DNA of 32,880 nt from a virus (Duplodnaviria; Heunggongvirae; Uroviricota; Caudoviricetes), in IMG/VR virus record IMGVR_UViG_2548876695_000022, positions 1 to 32,880 of that record; one strand, 5' to 3'. The notes beneath the pieces were generated by a model. It was not told the DNA's origin and did no database searches. It saw nothing but the letters and a program-made list of their open reading frames with translations. Numbering within the stretch: the stretch's first letter is position 1; the number at the start of each line of letters is the position of its first letter. This document shows, piece after piece, positions 13,523 to 18,404 of the stretch. Both the position numbers and the translations under genes were made by a program.

Positions 13523-15580
13523 ATGAATATTATGACGTCCAAATGGGTTCAACTATCATCAATGCCCGGAAACTTTACCGTTAAAGTTTCCGGTGGTACA
13601 GCGGCATTTCTTGAGGCTCCCTTTCCTCCTGCTGAAACGAAAGGAGGAATGACATTTGCTGACTGTCTCATCAGTTTTAATACACAGGATTGCCTGTGGG
13701 TAAGGCCAGTATCCGGTGATCCGAACGTGGAAATTACCGGAGCGGGTATTGGTGCTGTCATTCCGTTAAGTGCTGATGTTGCCGGTACTGCTGAACCGTC
13801 AGACTGGGATAATGCAGAAACACATACCCGTCCGGCAGGAAATGAAACGGCTTCCAGCTCCCCTTCCTGGTATTACGTGATTGTTATAGCCGGCCAGTCC
13901 AATGCTTCATCTTATGGTGAAGGGTTGCCCCTTCCGGATTCTTATGATCGTCCTGATCCACGTATTATGCAGCTGGCACGCAGGAATACACAAACCCCCG
14001 GAGGTATTCCCTGCAAATACAATGAAATCATTCCAGCAGATCACTGCCTTCATGATGTTCAGAATATGAGTCTGCTGAACCATCCAAAAGCAGACCTGAA
14101 AAAAGGGCAGTATGGTTGTGTGGGGCAGGGACTTCATATTGCGAAAAAAGTATTACCGGTGATTCCTGCTGATGCCGGGATTTTACTGGTTCCCTGTGCC
14201 CGTGGCGGCTCTGCTTTTACAACCGGCGCAGTTGGCTCATTCGATCCGGCAAGTGGTGCAGCCGAGGCGTCACTACGCTGGGGAGTGGATACCCCACTGT
14301 ATCAGGATCTTGTCAGTCGAACTAAAGCGGCACTTGAGGCGAATCCAAAGAATGTGCTGTTATCTGTCGTATGGATTCAGGGGGAAGGAGACCTTAAAGC
14401 GACCCCGGCCCAGCATGGTGCCCAGTTTACTGCGATGGTGAAAAAATTCCGTGCGGATCTTGGTGCTTTCTCCGGTCAGTGTATTGGTGGTTCATCAGAC
14501 AGTGTGCCGTGGTTATGTGGTGACACAACCTATGACTGGAAAGAGAAGAACCCGGCGGCATATGAAACCATTTATAGCGGATATAAAAACCGGGCTTCCG
14601 AGAACATTCACTTTGTTCCACTGATGCACGATGAGTTCGGTAATAAAACCGCGACCAACCTGCCGGAGCACGACCCGGATATCGCTTCTGCCGGGTATTA
14701 TGGTGCGGAATCACGGGGAGATGGCAACTGGACAACAGCATCCAGGGCAACCCATTTTAGCTCCTGGGCGCGCCGTTTTCTGGTCTCAGATCGTTTTGCA
14801 TCAGCAATTCTTAAATATGCAGGTCTGACCTCTGCATTTATTGCCGGTGTGGCCCCTGATGGTGAAGCCCTGCCTCAGCCCGCGCCGGGTGGGAAACCGG
14901 AAGCGCCGACAGGTAGTCAGCCAGGAGGCAGTGAGTCCCCCCATCCGACATCCCCGTCACTCCGTACGCTGCTTTCACTTAAAGCATCAGCAGGAGAAGC
15001 CCCGGCTCAGGGCTGGAAAATTACAGATGGTACAATCCAGCTGACGGACGAAGGTAAAGCGTTGACCGTATCCAAACAAAGCGGAAAAACCTGGACGCTT
15101 ACCCATGGAACTGATGCAGCCGGTGAACTTCTGAAGCATGGTGGTCAGTTGACCTGTAAATTCCGTCTGTCAGGTGAAGTAAAAGAAGGCCAGTTTGCTC
15201 TGGGTATTTACCTCCACACCGATACGGTCCCGGAAGGTGTAACCATGAGTGGTACAGGCACACCGTTCCTGATGGCGTATTATCTCCAGACAACAGGCGG
15301 CCAGTTAAATCTGATGCACCATAAAACAGGGGGGAATACGAAACTGGGATCATTTGGAGCCTACAATAACCAGTGGCATACACTTGTCCTGAAGTTTACG
15401 GCGGGAAGTGCCCAGGTAACGCCTGTGCTGGATGGCACTCCGGGCCAGGCATTCCAGATGGTGAAAGATGCACTTTCCCCTGCCAAAGATACGCTGACAC
15501 TGACAGATGTCACCAAAGGGGCAACTTATGGCGTGTCTTTTGAGAGCGTTGTCCTTGAGGTTAATACCCCTGCGGCATAA
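13523..15580 (+). CDS. SASA/SGNH-family carbohydrate O-acetylesterase with C-terminal lectin-like domain (prophage cargo, NanS-p-like)
   Basis: 685 aa; motifs VIVIAGQSNASSYGEG and VVWIQGEGD typical of sialate O-acetylesterase (SASA) domains; Pro/Gly-rich linker then a beta-rich C-terminal domain; no signal peptide. Confidence 0.55.
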   Translation: MNIMTSKWVQLSSMPGNFTVKVSGGTAAFLEAPFPPAETKGGMTFADCLISFNTQDCLWVRPVSGDPNVEITGAGIGAVIPLSADVAGTAEPSDWDNAETHTRPAGNETASSSPSWYYVIVIAGQSNASSYGEGLPLPDSYDRPDPRIMQLARRNTQTPGGIPCKYNEIIPADHCLHDVQNMSLLNHPKADLKKGQYGCVGQGLHIAKKVLPVIPADAGILLVPCARGGSAFTTGAVGSFDPASGAAEASLRWGVDTPLYQDLVSRTKAALEANPKNVLLSVVWIQGEGDLKATPAQHGAQFTAMVKKFRADLGAFSGQCIGGSSDSVPWLCGDTTYDWKEKNPAAYETIYSGYKNRASENIHFVPLMHDEFGNKTATNLPEHDPDIASAGYYGAESRGDGNWTTASRATHFSSWARRFLVSDRFASAILKYAGLTSAFIAGVAPDGEALPQPAPGGKPEAPTGSQPGGSESPHPTSPSLRTLLSLKASAGEAPAQGWKITDGTIQLTDEGKALTVSKQSGKTWTLTHGTDAAGELLKHGGQLTCKFRLSGEVKEGQFALGIYLHTDTVPEGVTMSGTGTPFLMAYYLQTTGGQLNLMHHKTGGNTKLGSFGAYNNQWHTLVLKFTAGSAQVTPVLDGTPGQAFQMVKDALSPAKDTLTLTDVTKGATYGVSFESVVLEVNTPAA

Positions 15581-15637
15581 TCGTGACGGCCGGGAATTTA
15601 TCCGGCTGTAACATCAGTTAATAAGAGTGAGGCTTAT

Positions 15638-15817
15638 ATGACATATATAAACGTCTGCCTGCTGTATTTCTGCACGGTGGTTTGTTGTCTGTTGCTTGTC
15701 AGCGGTGGTTATAAAATTATTCGCAATTATTTTCGAAATAAAATTGATGCAGCTGCCGAGGAAAAGATAAAAAGCGGTGCTGTAATGCCGCAGCCGAAAG
15801 ACTCCGGTCAGATTTAA
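15638..15817 (+). CDS. 59-aa small membrane protein (hypothetical)
   Basis: ATG preceded by a GAGTGAGG RBS; MTYINVCLLYFCTVVCCLLLVSGGYKIIRNYFRNK... has one hydrophobic helix then a basic/charged tail; below the ORF-track size cutoff. Confidence 0.35.
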   Translation: MTYINVCLLYFCTVVCCLLLVSGGYKIIRNYFRNKIDAAAEEKIKSGAVMPQPKDSGQI

Positions 15818-15852
15818 TTTTTTGTGAACCAGAAAAGGAAAGGAGAATATTC

Positions 15853-16098
15853 ATGCCAGAGATTAAAGGCACGGTTACTGAAGAGCTTGTCAAACAGGCA
15901 CTTTATTCTGAAGAAGTGAACCGCGTGCTGAAGGCGCAGGTTCGCAAGGATTTTGAGGCACAAATCGACGCATATGTTGATGAAGTGCTGGCCCGAATGG
16001 TTGGTCGTTCTCCGGCTGAAAACAGCACGGAAAATGAGCCTCAACCCGTAGAGCAACCAGAGCCGGTTCAGCCCGGAACTGACGGTACTATGATGTAA
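15853..16098 (+). CDS. 81-aa acidic hypothetical protein
   Basis: Strong RBS AAAGGAAAGGAG before the ATG; helical N-terminal half and a Pro/Glu-rich C-terminus. Confidence 0.45.
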   Translation: MPEIKGTVTEELVKQALYSEEVNRVLKAQVRKDFEAQIDAYVDEVLARMVGRSPAENSTENEPQPVEQPEPVQPGTDGTMM

Positions 16099-16107
16099 CA
16101 ATACCGA

Positions 16108-16127
16108 CCGGCAGGTTTCCCTGCCGG
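16108..16127. terminator. bidirectional hairpin between the convergent 81-aa and zinc-ribbon genes
   Basis: Perfect 8-bp stem CCGGCAGG-tttc-CCTGCCGG with T-rich flanks on both strands. Confidence 0.5.
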
Positions 16128-16136
16128 GTGAATTTG

Positions 16137-16307
16137 TTAATGCACGTTTTGTGTATTTTCCCTCCGGGGAGAACAGGCAGGACATATCAGCATCCTGAAA
16201 CAGGAAGCATTTTTTGGTTTGTATGTCTTGCCATTTTGAGATCGAGAACGGCGATAGATGAGCTGTAAGGGAGTCTTACAGGCAGGGCAAACAGGCTCTT
16301 TATCCAT
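16137..16307 (-). CDS. 56-aa zinc-ribbon protein (CPAC...CPAC), function unknown
   Basis: Start at the internal ATG with an AAGGAG RBS 9 nt upstream; MDKEPVCPACKTPLQLIYRRSRSQNGKTYKPKNASCFRMLICPACSPRREN has two CxxC pairs; the ORF track lists 16137..16331. Confidence 0.45.
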   Translation of the reverse strand: MDKEPVCPACKTPLQLIYRRSRSQNGKTYKPKNASCFRMLICPACSPRRENTQNVH

Positions 16308-16415
16308 GATAAAGATCTCCTTTTTATGCATCTCTGCTTTACAGGAGACCGGGGAATATCATAGGATACGCCACGAGCTCGAAGTAAAGCATTGATGCAA
16401 GTTTTTACAGATTGA

Positions 16416-16454
16416 CCCAGCATAGTTCCAGCTATGCTGGGTTTCACTTTTATG
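16416..16454 (+). terminator. rho-independent terminator-like hairpin (+ strand)
   Basis: Perfect 10-bp stem CCCAGCATAG-ttccag-CTATGCTGGG followed by TTTCACTTTTATG; the exact window centre falls in this element. Confidence 0.45.
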
Positions 16455-16713
16455 TAGTATCCTGTTGATTTGAAACATACTACATATACGCGCGATCCTA
16501 CCTTCACTGTATAAAAAGTCAATAAAATGATCATTTTATGATCGTTTTCACCACCTAACTCTTCGTTTCTTTAAGTAAATAATCACCGCCCTGAATCATT
16601 GTTGATGACTTTTAAATCTATTTGTTGTATCAATTAAACAAATCGAATCGATCGTTTTTGTCGATCGATTGCATGAGAAAGGCATCAACAACAAAGCAGG
16701 AGGTTATGCGGCC
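16451..16713 (+). promoter_or_regulatory. com-mom upstream control region (palindromes, GATC cluster, RBS)
   Basis: 10-bp inverted repeat TATGTAGTAT/ATACTACATA (16451-16460 and 16477-16486) with 16-bp spacer; five GATC sites at 16494, 16529, 16540, 16650 and 16663; dyad AATCGATCG-tttttgt-CGATCGATT at 16646-16670; AGGAGG 11 nt before the com ATG. Confidence 0.5.
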
Positions 16714-16914
16714 ATGTATCGAAACATACGGTGCCGACACTGCAATAAGCTACTGGCACGGGCCAGTTTCAGTTATCTGGAAGTAAAATGTCCGCGCTGT
16801 AAAACCCTCAATCAAATCACATCTCCGAGCGCCACAGAGCACCCCACATACACAAGGAAATCCTGTCGTGGGGAACAGAAAGCAAGTCACATCCCGTATC
16901 ATCAGCACGCCTGA
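16714..16914 (+). CDS. com: Com zinc-finger translational activator of mom
   Basis: [35 protein letters not shown] matches the Mu Com zinc-finger pattern (IRCKNCNKLL...CPRCK); the 3' end overlaps the downstream gene as in Mu. Confidence 0.8.
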
Positions 16915-17605
16915 ACTTATTCGCTATAACGACAATATCGTTGGTTATGGCTCCCGTGAGTTGCGGGTTGAGACAATAAGTTGCTGGCTGGCCAGACTGG
17001 TTATCGTCAATAAACATTACAGCCACCGTTTCGTAAATAATTCCTACCTTCATCTGGGTATATTTTCAGAACGGGAACTTGTTGGCGTAATGCAATGGGG
17101 TTACGCCCTTAACCCAAACAGTGGTGCACGCGTCGTAACGGGTACGCAGAACCGAGAATATATGGAGCTTAACCGGCTATGGATGCATGACTGTATGCCG
17201 AGAAACTCCGAATCAAGGGCAATCAGTTACGCGCTCAAGCTAATCAGGCAGCTTTATCCGCAGGTACAGTGGGTTCAGTCGTTTGCAGATGAGCGTTGTG
17301 GCTGTCTTGGTGTCGTGTATCAGGCCAGCAATTTTGATTATGTAGGCAGCCATGAATCAACATTCTATGAACTTGATGGCGAGTGGTATCACGAGATTTG
17401 CAGGAGTGCCATTAAACGAGGCGGACAACGAGGTGAACATCTGAGGGCTAATATCGACAGAGCCAGTGTGCATAAGTTCCGACAGTTTCGTTACATCCGG
17501 TTTCTGAACAAGAGGGCCAGAAAACGCCTCAACACAAAGCTATTCAAAGTCCACCCTTACCCAAAACCACAAACAGTTAAAACTGGTTTGAAAGAGAGTG
17601 AATGA
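16868..17605 (+). CDS. mom: Mom DNA-modification (anti-restriction) protein
   Basis: 245-aa ORF with GTG start overlapping com, in the Mu position after gin; the com-mom pairing is diagnostic. Confidence 0.75.
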
Positions 17606-17644
17606 GCGCTTAAAAACTCATTCTAAAACTCAAAAGAAAAGCGC

Positions 17645-17725
17645 CGATTTAGTATCAAATAAGTTGCGTATCGGCGTTTTTCAGCGGTATCAAATGAAAT
17701 GCAAATCGGTATCAAAAAAATCGCC
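17645..17725. repeat. three direct repeats (G)GTATCAAA in the mom-distal intergenic region
   Basis: Copies start at 17652, 17686 and 17708, plus GTATCGG at 17668; candidate transposase end-binding sites of the Mu-like element or an operator for the downstream operon. Confidence 0.4.
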
Positions 17726-17747
17726 GCGCTATAAACAGCTAAAGCAG

Positions 17748-18404
17748 ATGCGGGAAACGCTGGCAAAAGCTGACCTTCCCCCGCGTAAGCGCCAGCGCCT
17801 TTTATGGCGTATTGCAAAGCTGGGCATTGTCGCAGCGGCAAAACGTCACCAGCGCCAGCAGGCGGCCCCGGACGGTACGCCGTGGGAGCCGCGCAAGCGT
17901 GGCAAAGGGAAGATGTTAAAAGGGCTGCCCAAGCTGTTGGCCGTGCGCGAAATGCCGGAGATTCAGGGGGTAAGAATTTACCTCAAGGGCGGGAACTACC
18001 GGAACGGGACGAAGCCCATCGCGGCGGGTCTGGTCGGCGCGGTCCAGCAGGACGGCGCACGGATCCAGATGAAAGCCAGTAACGCCCCGCGTAAGCCGCA
18101 GGCTGACAAGCCAGCGCTACCGCGACAGGCCAAGCGTCTGCGGGCGCTGGGTTACAAAACCCGCAAGGGCAAACGCTGGGTTAAGCCGTCCAGCAAGCAA
18201 ATCATGGAAACCATGAGCATGGCCCAGGCGGGATTACTGATTCGAAAACTGAAAGGCACACCCTCAAAACGCACATGGACCATTGATATTCCTGGGCGCG
18301 TTTTTCTGGGGGTGAGCAACGACGAATTTAACCAAATTATTGCGCGGCAAATGCAGGCAATCGGCTTCGGCTGGGACGTCAACGCGCAGCAAATCAGGGG
18401 GTAA
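17748..18404 (+). CDS. virion morphogenesis / tail completion protein (P2 gpS / Mu G-like)
   Basis: Pattern RKRQRLLWRIAK...QQAAPDGTPWEPRKRGKG...IPGRVFLGVSNDEF resembles the gpS-type tail completion family; start uncertain (ORF track begins with GTG at 17598; ATG at 17748 chosen, no strong RBS). Confidence 0.45.
   Translation: MRETLAKADLPPRKRQRLLWRIAKLGIVAAAKRHQRQQAAPDGTPWEPRKRGKGKMLKGLPKLLAVREMPEIQGVRIYLKGGNYRNGTKPIAAGLVGAVQQDGARIQMKASNAPRKPQADKPALPRQAKRLRALGYKTRKGKRWVKPSSKQIMETMSMAQAGLLIRKLKGTPSKRTWTIDIPGRVFLGVSNDEFNQIIARQMQAIGFGWDVNAQQIRG

Follow-up and report, generated by a model that had tools for sequence, protein, structure and literature searches.

The DNA upstream of com in this Sp18-type Mu-like prophage of Escherichia coli is, in a reading that we hold with moderate confidence, made up of two adjacent and separable modules within positions 16328-16713: a com-proximal core (Module B, 16597-16713) carrying a putative OxyR/Dam operator for com-mom, and a distal platform (Module A, 16328-16548) in which two predicted promoters face each other beside a swappable minus-strand cargo gene. 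Positions are those of the window, the whole 32,880-nucleotide stretch that was analyzed. Mu-like prophages in 233 of 5426 complete E. coli genomes match the window at 99.8% identity, and com-mom lies at the prophage right end. Sp18-type prophages occur in many Shiga toxin-producing E. coli (STEC). Pfam upheld the identities proposed for com (16714-16914, + strand; Zn_ribbon_Com, 2e-12, with concordant RefSeq annotation) and mom (16868-17605, + strand; Mom, 8.4e-77) in the preliminary description of this DNA. The two genes overlap at 16868-16914 and lie directly downstream of the control region; the com Shine-Dalgarno sequence, AGGAGG, is at 16700-16705 on the + strand. The Mom enzyme modifies DNA in an unusual way and is toxic; in Mu, the layers of mom control (Dam, OxyR, the activator C, and Com, a zinc-ribbon translational activator) are a textbook example. 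Homologues of mom number 1536 at E <= 1e-10, and this prophage type also encodes a C homologue that is 39% identical to Mu C. Searches of the literature returned no transcript, footprint, or methylation reports for the com-mom upstream locus and no small RNA or transcription-start reports for Sp18; a paper that combines Sp18 with a small RNA concerns a different locus.

The core is built around a perfect dyad (16646-16670), AATCGATCG-N7-CGATCGATT, with arms at 16646-16654 and 16662-16670, which ends 43 nt before the com ATG (16714) and encloses two GATC sites in the arrangement GATC-N9-GATC (16650 and 16663). This dyad had been noted before, together with the statement that the palindromes of the region differ from those of Mu; for the dyad that statement is wrong, as Mu has AATCGATCGgtaatacAGATCGATT at the same place, and agn43 has TATCGATCGtttatatCGATCGATA. 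The window dyad corresponds to GATC sites II and III of Mu mom and of agn43, and the Mu and window loci share overlapping com-mom genes at the prophage right end and a GATC-N9-GATC dyad (AATCGATCG..GATCGATT) preceded by ATCAATTAAA; by itself, a local alignment of the com upstream region to Mu is of marginal significance (P = 0.03). The dyad also matches the agn43 (flu) operator at 21 of 25 positions, and the agn43 layout, GATC-N15-GATC-N9-GATC, is like that of the window core with the third GATC missing from the window. The gene downstream differs: an autotransporter in agn43, a phage DNA-modification operon here. The OxyR/Dam mechanism is documented for Mu mom, agn43, and gtr (PMC3378877, PMC2909390).

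A search for OxyR motifs, as the preliminary description had suggested, yielded a predicted operator at 16629-16665 (no strand assigned) that spans both GATC sites and consists, by consensus score in silico, of two half-sites, ATCAATTAAACAAAT and ATCGTTTTTGTCGAT, as for an OxyR tetramer with one dimer on each. It scores 13/20 against the OxyR consensus, equal in both register and score to the OxyR region of Mu, and agn43 has the same best register. Half-site ATCGTTTTTGTCGAT, whose agn43 equivalent is ATCGTTTATATCGAT, covers GATC II (16650) and GATC III (16663), which are 13 bp apart. In the P22 gtr system, the GATC spacing within an OxyR half-site is likewise 13 bp (PMC2909390), so that the P22/Salmonella gtr loci and the window both place a 13-bp GATC pair inside a single half-site. 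Two GATC pairs and three half-sites allow OxyR to take alternative activating and repressing positions in gtr (PMC2909390), whereas the window has one GATC pair, though with several overlapping OxyR-like registers. Across the 32.9-kb window, four of the five best matches to the consensus (scores of at least 13) fall within 68 bp, at 16598-16665; among 2000 shuffles of the local sequence, none gave four matches of at least 13, and a maximum of at least 14 had P = 0.0055. The OxyR consensus itself is degenerate and rich in A+T, and equal scores are reached in more than one overlapping register here.

Conservation singles out the same pair. It is retained in 13 of 13 distinct Sp18-type upstream variants (37 loci), and the core is nearly invariant in every lineage, with 16619-16713 nearly so in three E. 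coli lineages, one of which (JE86) has unrelated flanking DNA. The GATC-N9-GATC arrangement also lies upstream of com in Mu and in further loci (L013, L026, L036, L058, L216, L220, L211, L011, and L215). Two or three GATC sites occur within 200 bp upstream of com in Mu, Enterobacterales, and a few other gammaproteobacterial mom loci, and in most such lineages they include the N9-spaced pair. Upstream GATC sites are absent from most Desulfovibrio, alphaproteobacterial, and other distant mom loci; the 11 distant loci that have one to three of them are in GATC-rich backgrounds. At the position of GATC site I, every Sp18-type lineage of E. coli has TATC, and Edwardsiella-type relatives have GATC. 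The dyad arms are imperfect in relatives, yet both GATC sites and their 13-bp spacing are retained, which fits a methylation-sensitive DNA site. A scan of viral contigs for the dyad pattern was set aside: besides chance contexts, its mom-linked matches were solely of the Mu or Sp18 type, with no intermediate diversity.

The dyad might instead act as RNA, either by forming a hairpin within a long leader of com or by terminating minus-strand transcription. A terminator scan does call it terminator-like on the minus strand, it would form a 9-bp stem in a leader starting near 16640, and a 127-nt RNA that includes a flanking repeat (16590-16612/16678-16700) folds with z = -3.1. However, the leader taken by itself is on a par with shuffles in its folding (z = -0.98), a minus-strand terminator would have no gene or promoter to its right, the arms are imperfect in relatives while the GATC sites and their spacing persist, and the same sequence is an established OxyR site in Mu and agn43; we consider a role as RNA very improbable. 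The most probable role of the dyad is that of a Dam-sensitive OxyR operator controlling com-mom, so the expectation of a Mu-type methylation-sensitive OxyR site appears to hold for the com-proximal GATC pair, judging from its retention in 13/13 variants and the OxyR matches. OxyR would bind the pair when it is unmethylated or hemimethylated and block com-mom transcription, and Dam methylation of the pair would relieve the block.

The argument for the GATC sites rests on position, conservation, and homology, not on density. All five sites claimed previously are present (16494, 16529, 16540, 16650, and 16663), and they form the densest cluster of the window (local Poisson P = 0.008). Over the whole window, GATC is not enriched (132 observed versus 122 expected), and at least five sites in 298 bp arise somewhere in 82% of shuffled windows; density by itself is therefore not significant, and we discarded it as a statistic. 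The concentration of palindromes upstream of com, on the other hand, is far above chance. The window holds three distinct perfect inverted repeats of at least 10 bp (loop 3-20), two of them here, and three of its six distinct perfect 9-bp repeats are within 16415-16670; with overlapping registers counted separately, there are 6 matches in the real sequence versus 0.7 per dinucleotide-shuffled window.

The operator may also lie differently from that of Mu relative to the com promoter. Two candidate promoters were identified. The first, Pup (ATGACT-17-TATCAA, 16605-16633, + strand), has a predicted start near 16640; the window, M18, JE86 (as ATGACA), and L214 share its hexamers and 17-nt spacing over a spacer of varying sequence, its -10 element lacks the final T, and the TATC at 16628-16631 within its -10 region occupies the position of GATC site I in relatives. 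The second, Pdown, is an alternative -10 element (CATCAA, 16683-16688, + strand) inferred from an alignment of sister lineages, which read TATCAT, TATCAA, or AATGAT, and would start com near 16695. Both have weak -10 hexamers, and either would put the operator on the com promoter. If com uses Pup, the operator overlaps or lies downstream of the start, as in agn43, whose IsrC leader RNA has its annotated start at GATC I. A com start near 16695 would put the GATC pair at about -46 and -33, exactly the positions of GATC3 and GATC4 in gtr (PMC2909390).

In Mu mom, the C site lies between the GATC sites and the -10 element, at about -28 to -57. No such site was found here. A late-activator motif, CTGAwATyCCGCAAArCCyGCC-16-TAyGCT, was derived from the promoters upstream of lys and gene I of the Sp18-type prophage; a search for further copies found nothing within 5 mismatches anywhere in the window, so the site that the prophage's own C-type protein would be expected to use, which the preliminary description had proposed to look for, is not found upstream of com. 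By-eye comparison of the com region with the other late intergenic regions showed nothing in common. The gene I promoter has just one 10-mer, CCGCCCTGAA, in common with the region (16586-16595), and this precedes the GATC pair instead of falling in the segment that separates the pair from com. A weak resemblance to Mu Plys at 16579-16598 (ATAATCACCGCCCTG versus ATAATCCCGCACCTG) was rejected, sister lineages reading CCTC, CCTA, and CCAC there. An OxyR/Dam operator with no activator site would not readily account for the silence of mom in dam+ lysogens, which counts against this reading.

The window core further differs from Mu in having only two GATC sites, with TATC at site I; in the spacing between GATC III and the com ATG, which is 51 bp and so 26 bp shorter than the 77 bp of Mu; in the absence of the Mu T6 run and TAAGAT -10 element; and in what lies upstream, the end of gin in Mu but a 290-bp noncoding module and a minus-strand cargo gene here. 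Lineages vary widely in how far the candidate -10 element lies from GATC III, with offsets of about 11, 20, 34, and 43 bp. Together, the TATC at site I, the shortened segment, and the missing C-like motif suggest that the operator overlaps or lies downstream of the com core promoter, in the manner of agn43 and gtr, and not upstream of a C site.

Module A, by contrast, has no Mu counterpart, and some com-mom lineages do without it. A promoter scan of 2.3 kb (15500-17800) returned two sigma-70-like matches, both in this module and facing each other. P(+) (TTTACA-18-TAGGAT, 16338-16367, + strand) has a predicted start near 16375; its hexamers are identical over six spacer sequences, Salmonella-type loci included, and E. 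coli M18 has TTTACA-17-TCGGAT, with a weaker -10. P(-) (TTGACT-16-TAGGAT, 16495-16522, minus strand) points leftward to the cargo gene, with a predicted start near 16488; its -35 is TTGAC(T/G), its spacer is 16 nt throughout despite sequence differences, and its -10 variants (TAGGAT, TAAGAT, TATAAT, and TACGAT) vary at positions 3 and 4 alone. For both promoters, hexamers and spacer lengths are conserved while the spacers themselves have diverged across E. coli, M18, L319, and the Salmonella-type loci.

The three distal GATC sites lie in and beside P(-). One (16494-16497) overlaps its -10 element, and the other two (16529 and 16540) lie within a dyad, AAAATGATCAT-N3-ATGATCGTTTT (16524-16548, no strand assigned), just upstream of its -35. 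The site at 16529 is kept in M18, and L319 has a GATC similarly placed just upstream of the -35; that at 16540 is kept in neither, and both are absent from Salmonella-type loci, JE86, and L214. According to the OxyR-consensus scan, the distal sites are outside any OxyR-like context.

The preliminary description had treated these 300 bp as a single Mu-like mom control region, with all five GATC sites and three palindromes acting on com-mom. Every element does lie within 300 bp upstream of com, and in viral contigs Module A always adjoins com-mom. Against this, JE86 and L214 keep a core of only about 95-120 bp, without the three distal GATC sites, the second inverted repeat (see below), or P(-); the distal sites, hairpin, and second repeat thus belong to a separate module missing from those two lineages, one that surrounds a conserved promoter firing away from com. 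Together with the lack of OxyR-like context and the chance-level complementarity described below, this makes one extended control region unlikely. In the two-module reading, leftward P(-), whose -10 contains one GATC and whose -35 has one or two others immediately upstream, would drive the swappable cargo gene.

In the window, that gene encodes a small zinc-ribbon protein of 56 aa with two CPAC motifs (16137-16307, minus strand; taken from the ORF list), preceded by an AGGAG ribosome-binding site; its Pfam and PHROG matches are weak. It occupies a cargo slot adjoining the com-mom module that in relatives holds unrelated minus-strand genes of 175, 101, or 86 aa. RefSeq annotates 16137-16599 as "hypothetical protein, frameshifted", which would make the hairpin, the second repeat, and three of the GATC sites nonregulatory parts of a decaying minus-strand gene, and in O157 strain FRIK944 a 154-aa ORF is indeed intact. 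Lineages, however, differ in the stretch upstream of the zinc-ribbon gene by 1-, 2-, 3-, and 4-nt indels and an 80-bp duplication, inside what would be coding sequence; those indels that are not multiples of 3 show the stretch to be noncoding. In addition, Pfam gave no match for the N-terminal 98 aa of the 154-aa ORF; the zinc-ribbon part carries an AGGAG site and an ATG of its own; the 1-nt O157 insertion that fuses the frames also moves the zinc-ribbon start to a new in-frame ATG and leaves that ORF intact; in M18 and Salmonella, this DNA is followed by cargo genes that are unrelated; and it is the promoter hexamers and hairpin pairing that are conserved, not the reading frame. A decaying gene is therefore highly unlikely, and the frameshifted 154-aa ORF, with the pseudogene call that it entails, is probably spurious and is corrected here. 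Small ORFs within the stretch (39 aa on the minus strand, 6 codons on the + strand) were dismissed as not conserved.

Between the facing promoters lie two inverted repeats, both reported earlier and both present. The second, TATGTAGTAT-N16-ATACTACATA (16451-16486, no strand assigned), has perfect 10-bp arms at 16451-16460 and 16477-16486 around a 16-bp spacer and covers +2 to +37 of the predicted minus-strand transcript, where it folds as a 5' hairpin. L225 and L319 keep its arms around spacers that differ in sequence and length (16, 18, or 20 nt), and M18 has lost it through a 16-bp deletion. The arms are conserved and not covarying, so this repeat may also have an operator role. The first is a hairpin called by the terminator scan (16415-16454, + strand), with a perfect 11-bp stem (arms 16415-16425 and 16432-16442), a 6-nt loop, and a TTTCACTTTTAT tail; counting G-U, it has 13 pairs, 6 of them G-C, with the tail TCACTTTTAT, and it folds at -21.7 kcal/mol (z = -6.6). 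Because the MAFFT alignment misplaced bulges, its variants were folded one by one in place of columnwise covariation counts. The 15 sequence variants comprise six stem types, all folding at the same place; all six types pair, and their compensatory changes include that from ATAG/CTAT to GTAG/CTAC.

P(+) and this hairpin together predict a + strand RNA of about 75 nt (16375-16452), in which a conserved 5' segment, GAGCTCGAAGTAAAGCATTGATGC, leads into the hairpin and which would be antisense to the predicted minus-strand leader. A short + strand RNA ending at the hairpin, suggested in the preliminary description, thus gains support from the conserved promoter and the compensatory changes. Both repeats could, alternatively, act only in the minus-strand mRNA as 5' stem-loops or processing sites, with no + strand RNA made. 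They do fold as consecutive hairpins at the predicted transcript 5' end (-28.9 kcal/mol, z = -5.1); the U-tract, which is good in the window and L214, is weak in four stem types (3 U's, 5-7 nt away), so that termination may be leaky or may not be the conserved function of the hairpin; and in one duplicated copy, the upstream one of L009, a mismatch (C-A) on the + strand would be a G-U pair on the minus. Against a purely minus-strand role, the P(+) hexamers are conserved with their 18-nt spacing over six spacer variants; one stem type (C) is extended by a G-U pair possible only on the + strand; and in L214, which has no minus-strand gene there, the hairpin and its good U-tract follow the stop codon of a + strand gene by 47 nt and precede the com core by 25 bp. 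We regard a minus-strand-only role as improbable, though less so than the alternatives above. In the arrangement that we favor, the facing P(+) would make the short RNA, ending at the hairpin and antisense to the leader of the cargo mRNA, a leader that would itself begin with two stable hairpins; in the + direction, the hairpin may also halt upstream transcription before it reaches com-mom. Pairing of the RNA in trans with the com-mom mRNA was rejected: complementarity was not significant, the duplex energy was at chance level (no better than 47% of shuffles), and Salmonella-type loci do not retain the pairing. An Rfam scan of 15500-17800 at a permissive threshold gave chance-level matches only.

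Lambda OOP and P22 Sar are short phage cis-antisense RNAs with their own promoter and hairpin terminator, and moron cassettes offer a parallel to the cargo gene. The RNA predicted here resembles OOP and Sar in its promoter, hairpin, and orientation opposite to a neighboring phage transcript, and the cargo gene resembles a moron in having its own promoter and terminator at a module boundary. The RNA differs in showing no sequence or Rfam similarity, in being predicted from sequence, and in overlapping a 5' leader, at 68-143 nt before the cargo start codon, rather than a coding region or ribosome-binding site. Module A is probably previously undescribed, and Module B is probably a rearranged copy of the known OxyR operator of Mu. 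The probable role of Module A is that of a conserved platform from which exchangeable minus-strand cargo genes are expressed.

A stronger and speculative proposal, which we think unlikely, is that Sp18-type com-mom has lost the Mu-style activator site and is under the main control of an OxyR/Dam operator on its core promoter, like agn43 and gtr, giving heritable ON/OFF Mom modification in lysogens, while an adjacent Dam-sensitive promoter with GATC in its -10, together with an antisense RNA, drives interchangeable cargo. Phase variation of mom is not shown, for Mu included (PMC2909390). If the proposal were true, it would amount to epigenetic phase variation of a phage anti-restriction function in an arrangement that about 4% of complete E. 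coli genomes carry, STEC accounting for many of these genomes. More broadly, the Dam/OxyR part of mom control looks like a portable operator, common to agn43 and kept across Enterobacterales mom loci, beside which an activator-dependent promoter seems to have been rebuilt several times. The facing promoters, hairpin, and swappable cargo constitute a candidate new prophage expression platform or small-RNA locus, and the Sp18-type arrangement offers a natural test of whether OxyR and Dam alone can gate mom, possibly in a phase-variable manner.

Comparison of positions 15600-17700 with complete E. coli genomes returned chromosomal Mu-like prophages at 99.8% identity in 233 of 5426 genomes, many of them STEC strains and O157:H7 among them. 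In the RefSeq annotation of one copy, the Mu-type late region ends with a gin-like recombinase, a DUF6645/SASA protein, DUF1378, and DUF826, followed by a minus-strand "hypothetical, frameshifted" CDS, com, mom, and host DNA. Pfam placed com at 16714-16914 and mom at 16868-17605, both on the plus strand, and the right end of the prophage lies at ~17728 in the window. This end (...atcgccgcgctata) comes after three cggtatcaaa-type repeats resembling transposase sites. Rightward of it, the genes in the window belong to another prophage (Phage_tail_S, DUF2586), which means that the Mu-like element transposed into a virion-morphogenesis gene of that prophage and that the 268-amino-acid (aa) ORF at 17598-18404 is a chimera. 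At 13566-13593, CCGGAAACTTTA-N4-TAAAGTTTCCGG forms the window's longest perfect palindrome. It lies 44 nt inside the DUF6645/SASA gene, shortly after the gin-like recombinase gene, and could serve in recombination or regulation.

The elements reported upstream of com in the preliminary description were all found: a hairpin with a T-rich tail on the plus strand (16415-16442; inverted-repeat and terminator scans), a second perfect 10-bp inverted repeat (16451-16460 and 16477-16486), five GATC sites (16494, 16529, 16540, 16650, and 16663), and a com-proximal GATC dyad (16646-16654 and 16662-16670). The clustering of dyad symmetry here is real: two of the three distinct perfect inverted repeats of at least 10 bp in 32.9 kb lie upstream of com, as do three of the six distinct 9-bp repeats, and the window gave 6 inverted-repeat hits versus 0.7 per shuffled window, with every overlapping register scored separately. 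GATC density, which had been taken as a sign of methylation control, is not significant alone; the 132 sites observed against 122 expected over the whole window represent background frequency, and at least one cluster of five GATCs in 298 bp arose in 82% of shuffled windows (local Poisson P = 0.008 for the cluster upstream of com).

Within the com-proximal core (module B, ~16597-16713), positions 16619-16713 hardly vary when eight E. coli variants are aligned, and this invariance extends to JE86, a relative whose leftward DNA is unrelated. The GATC-N9-GATC pair is intact in every one of 37 loci (13 distinct upstream sequences) and is likewise present in additional relatives found by exact protein look-up. 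Since Mu reads ATCAATTAAATCGATCGgtaatacaGATCGATT at the corresponding position, the dyad represents Mu GATC sites II (16650) and III (16663), and the earlier statement that the palindromes differ from Mu is wrong for the dyad. We compared 80 mom loci from other species (L011-L090). Where com was found, most Enterobacterales loci and a few from other gammaproteobacteria have three GATCs in the 200 bp preceding it, with the last two 13 bp apart in most of these lineages. Most Desulfovibrio, Azospirillum/alphaproteobacterial, and other distant mom loci have zero GATCs upstream of com; 11 distant loci have one to three, in GATC-rich backgrounds, and GANTC is not enriched either in the upstream region of the distant loci of this set. 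In the Sphingomonas/Sphingobium, Yersinia, and Serratia loci, a simple search turned up no com ORF ahead of mom.

OxyR acts as a repressor when bound to unmethylated DNA, and methylation by Dam prevents that binding (PMC3378877, PMC2909390). When the whole window was scanned with the OxyR tetramer consensus ATAGnTnnnAnCTAT-N7-ATAGnTnnnAnCTAT, four of the five top matches fell at 16598-16665, and the register at 16629-16665 equals that of Mu in position and score. In shuffled local AT-rich sequence, the probability of a maximum of at least 14 was 0.0055, and four matches of at least 13 were seen in 0 of 2000 shuffles. The core departs from Mu at site I, which is TATC in every E. coli lineage of this prophage type (GATC in Edwardsiella-type relatives), and in the distance between GATC III and the com ATG, 51 bp instead of 77 bp. 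The E. coli agn43 operator shares the three-GATC layout and agrees with the dyad at 21 of 25 positions, and P22 gtr has GATC pairs with 13-bp spacing inside single OxyR half-sites (PMC2909390).

Two candidate com promoters fit these two systems differently. From a candidate at 16605-16633 (plus strand; ATGAC(T/A)-17-TATCAA, kept in four lineages with a variable spacer sequence), com would start at ~16640 and the operator would span the start and extend downstream, as in agn43. From a candidate plus-strand -10 at 16683-16688 (CATCAA, TATCAT, TATCAA, or AATGAT), com would start at ~16695, with GATCs at positions -46 and -33 just as gtr has them. An imperfect 23-nt inverted repeat (16590-16612 and 16678-16700; core TTGTTGATG/CATCAACAA) flanks the GATC dyad, its right arm extending to the com Shine-Dalgarno sequence and its left arm missing from JE86 and the related locus L214; a third copy of TTGATGC lies at 16392-16398. 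This repeat could be a set of protein sites or, in a leader with an upstream start, could pair at long range as RNA.

The prophage type encodes a homologue of the Mu activator C (39% identity), adjoining lys. A motif common to lys and the protease gene (I) lies upstream of each in L091 (E. coli STEC799, reverse complement; 12699 and 20627): a 22-bp CTGAwATyCCGCAAArCCyGCC separated by exactly 16 nt from a downstream TAyGCT. It resembles the C sites of Mu late promoters, and the two sites are presumably C-dependent late promoters. The preliminary description had suggested looking for C sites near com, but this motif has no match at ≤5 mismatches anywhere in the window. The sole stretch in common with the I promoter is a 10-mer at 16586-16595, the central G of which is not kept in sister lineages. 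In L220, a metagenomic relative, a window-like upstream half is joined to a Mu-like C site and promoter, so operator and promoter are separable pieces.

The distal part (16328-16548) is a separate module, module A. A promoter scan identified only two sigma-70-like sites in 2.3 kb, facing each other: P(+) at 16338-16367 (plus strand, TTTACA-18-TAGGAT) and P(-) at 16522-16495 (minus strand, TTGACT-16-TAGGAT). Across six spacer variants, P(+) retains its hexamers and 18-nt spacing; relatives keep TTGAC(T/G) and the 16-nt spacer length of P(-) with unrelated spacer sequence, and its -10 (TAGGAT, TAAGAT, TATAAT, or TACGAT) varies only at positions 3 and 4. This is the pattern expected of real promoters, which both are predicted to be. 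In three E. coli-type lineages, one GATC overlaps the P(-) -10 and another lies just upstream of the -35, and Salmonella-type loci have neither. GATCs in or beside P(-) account for the three distal sites, for which the OxyR scan found no OxyR-like context; the proposed Mu-like switch is supported for the com-proximal pair with its OxyR match and not for these.

The hairpin and second inverted repeat lie between the predicted starts (~16375 for P(+), ~16488 for P(-)). The hairpin occurs in 15 sequence variants of six stem types, all folding at one position (-10 to -21.5 kcal/mol), with co-changed arms such as CCCAGCATAG/CTATGCTGGG, GTCCAGATAG/CTATCTGGAC, and CCCGGTAG/CTACCGGG. In L214, which lacks minus-strand cargo, it lies 47 nt after a plus-strand gene and 25 bp from the com core and has a good U-tract, an arrangement that fits a plus-strand terminator; four other stem types have a weak U-tract. 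The second repeat, lost in the relative M18, has conserved arms around a loop of variable sequence and of 16, 18, or 20 nt, which favors a hairpin at the 5' end of a minus-strand RNA over a dimeric operator. Tandem duplications of the unit AGCATTGATGC-hairpin-TTTATGTAGT in L009 (880-1010), L211 (960-1110), and L225 place two different hairpin alleles side by side, suggesting recombination between module variants. Module A always adjoins com-mom in viral contigs; JE86 and L214 have com-mom without most of it.

RefSeq annotates 16137-16599 (minus strand) as a frameshifted ORF, intact in O157 (154 aa; WP_115801860.1). This is probably no gene: E. coli lineages differ here by indels of 1, 2, 3, and 4 nt and one 80-bp duplication, Pfam matched no family to the 98 N-terminal residues, and the C-terminal zinc-ribbon part is equipped with a separate AGGAG site and an ATG (16307). 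The annotated ORF is probably noncoding DNA fused spuriously onto a genuine 56-aa zinc-ribbon ORF; the O157 insertion that fuses the frames also supplies the short protein with a new ATG. In relatives, this slot holds unrelated genes on the minus strand (M18, 175 aa; Salmonella, 101 aa; JE86, 86 aa). The 56-aa cargo ORF is thus the real gene here, and 16308-16713 is intergenic. Homology to the window restarts at ~16328 in M18 and STEC1587, at a conserved block immediately left of P(+) in the Salmonella type, and only at the com-proximal core (~16619) in JE86. A G+C-rich hairpin (16106-16127, CCGGCAGG-tttc-CCTGCCGG) between the ends of DUF826 (plus strand) and the zinc-ribbon gene (minus strand) looks like a bidirectional terminator bounding the slot on the left.

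The initial observation is thus confirmed and its interpretation supported in part; a literature search found no experimental work on this locus upstream of com. Module B is most likely a Dam-sensitive OxyR operator that overlaps or immediately follows a weak com promoter, and the OxyR/Dam switch here is a rearranged version of a known kind of switch. Module A, undescribed and predicted from sequence, is most likely a platform for expressing a swappable cargo gene, combining a leftward promoter that may be Dam-sensitive with a structured leader and a short antisense RNA; the latter would end at the hairpin, which may additionally shield com-mom from upstream transcription.
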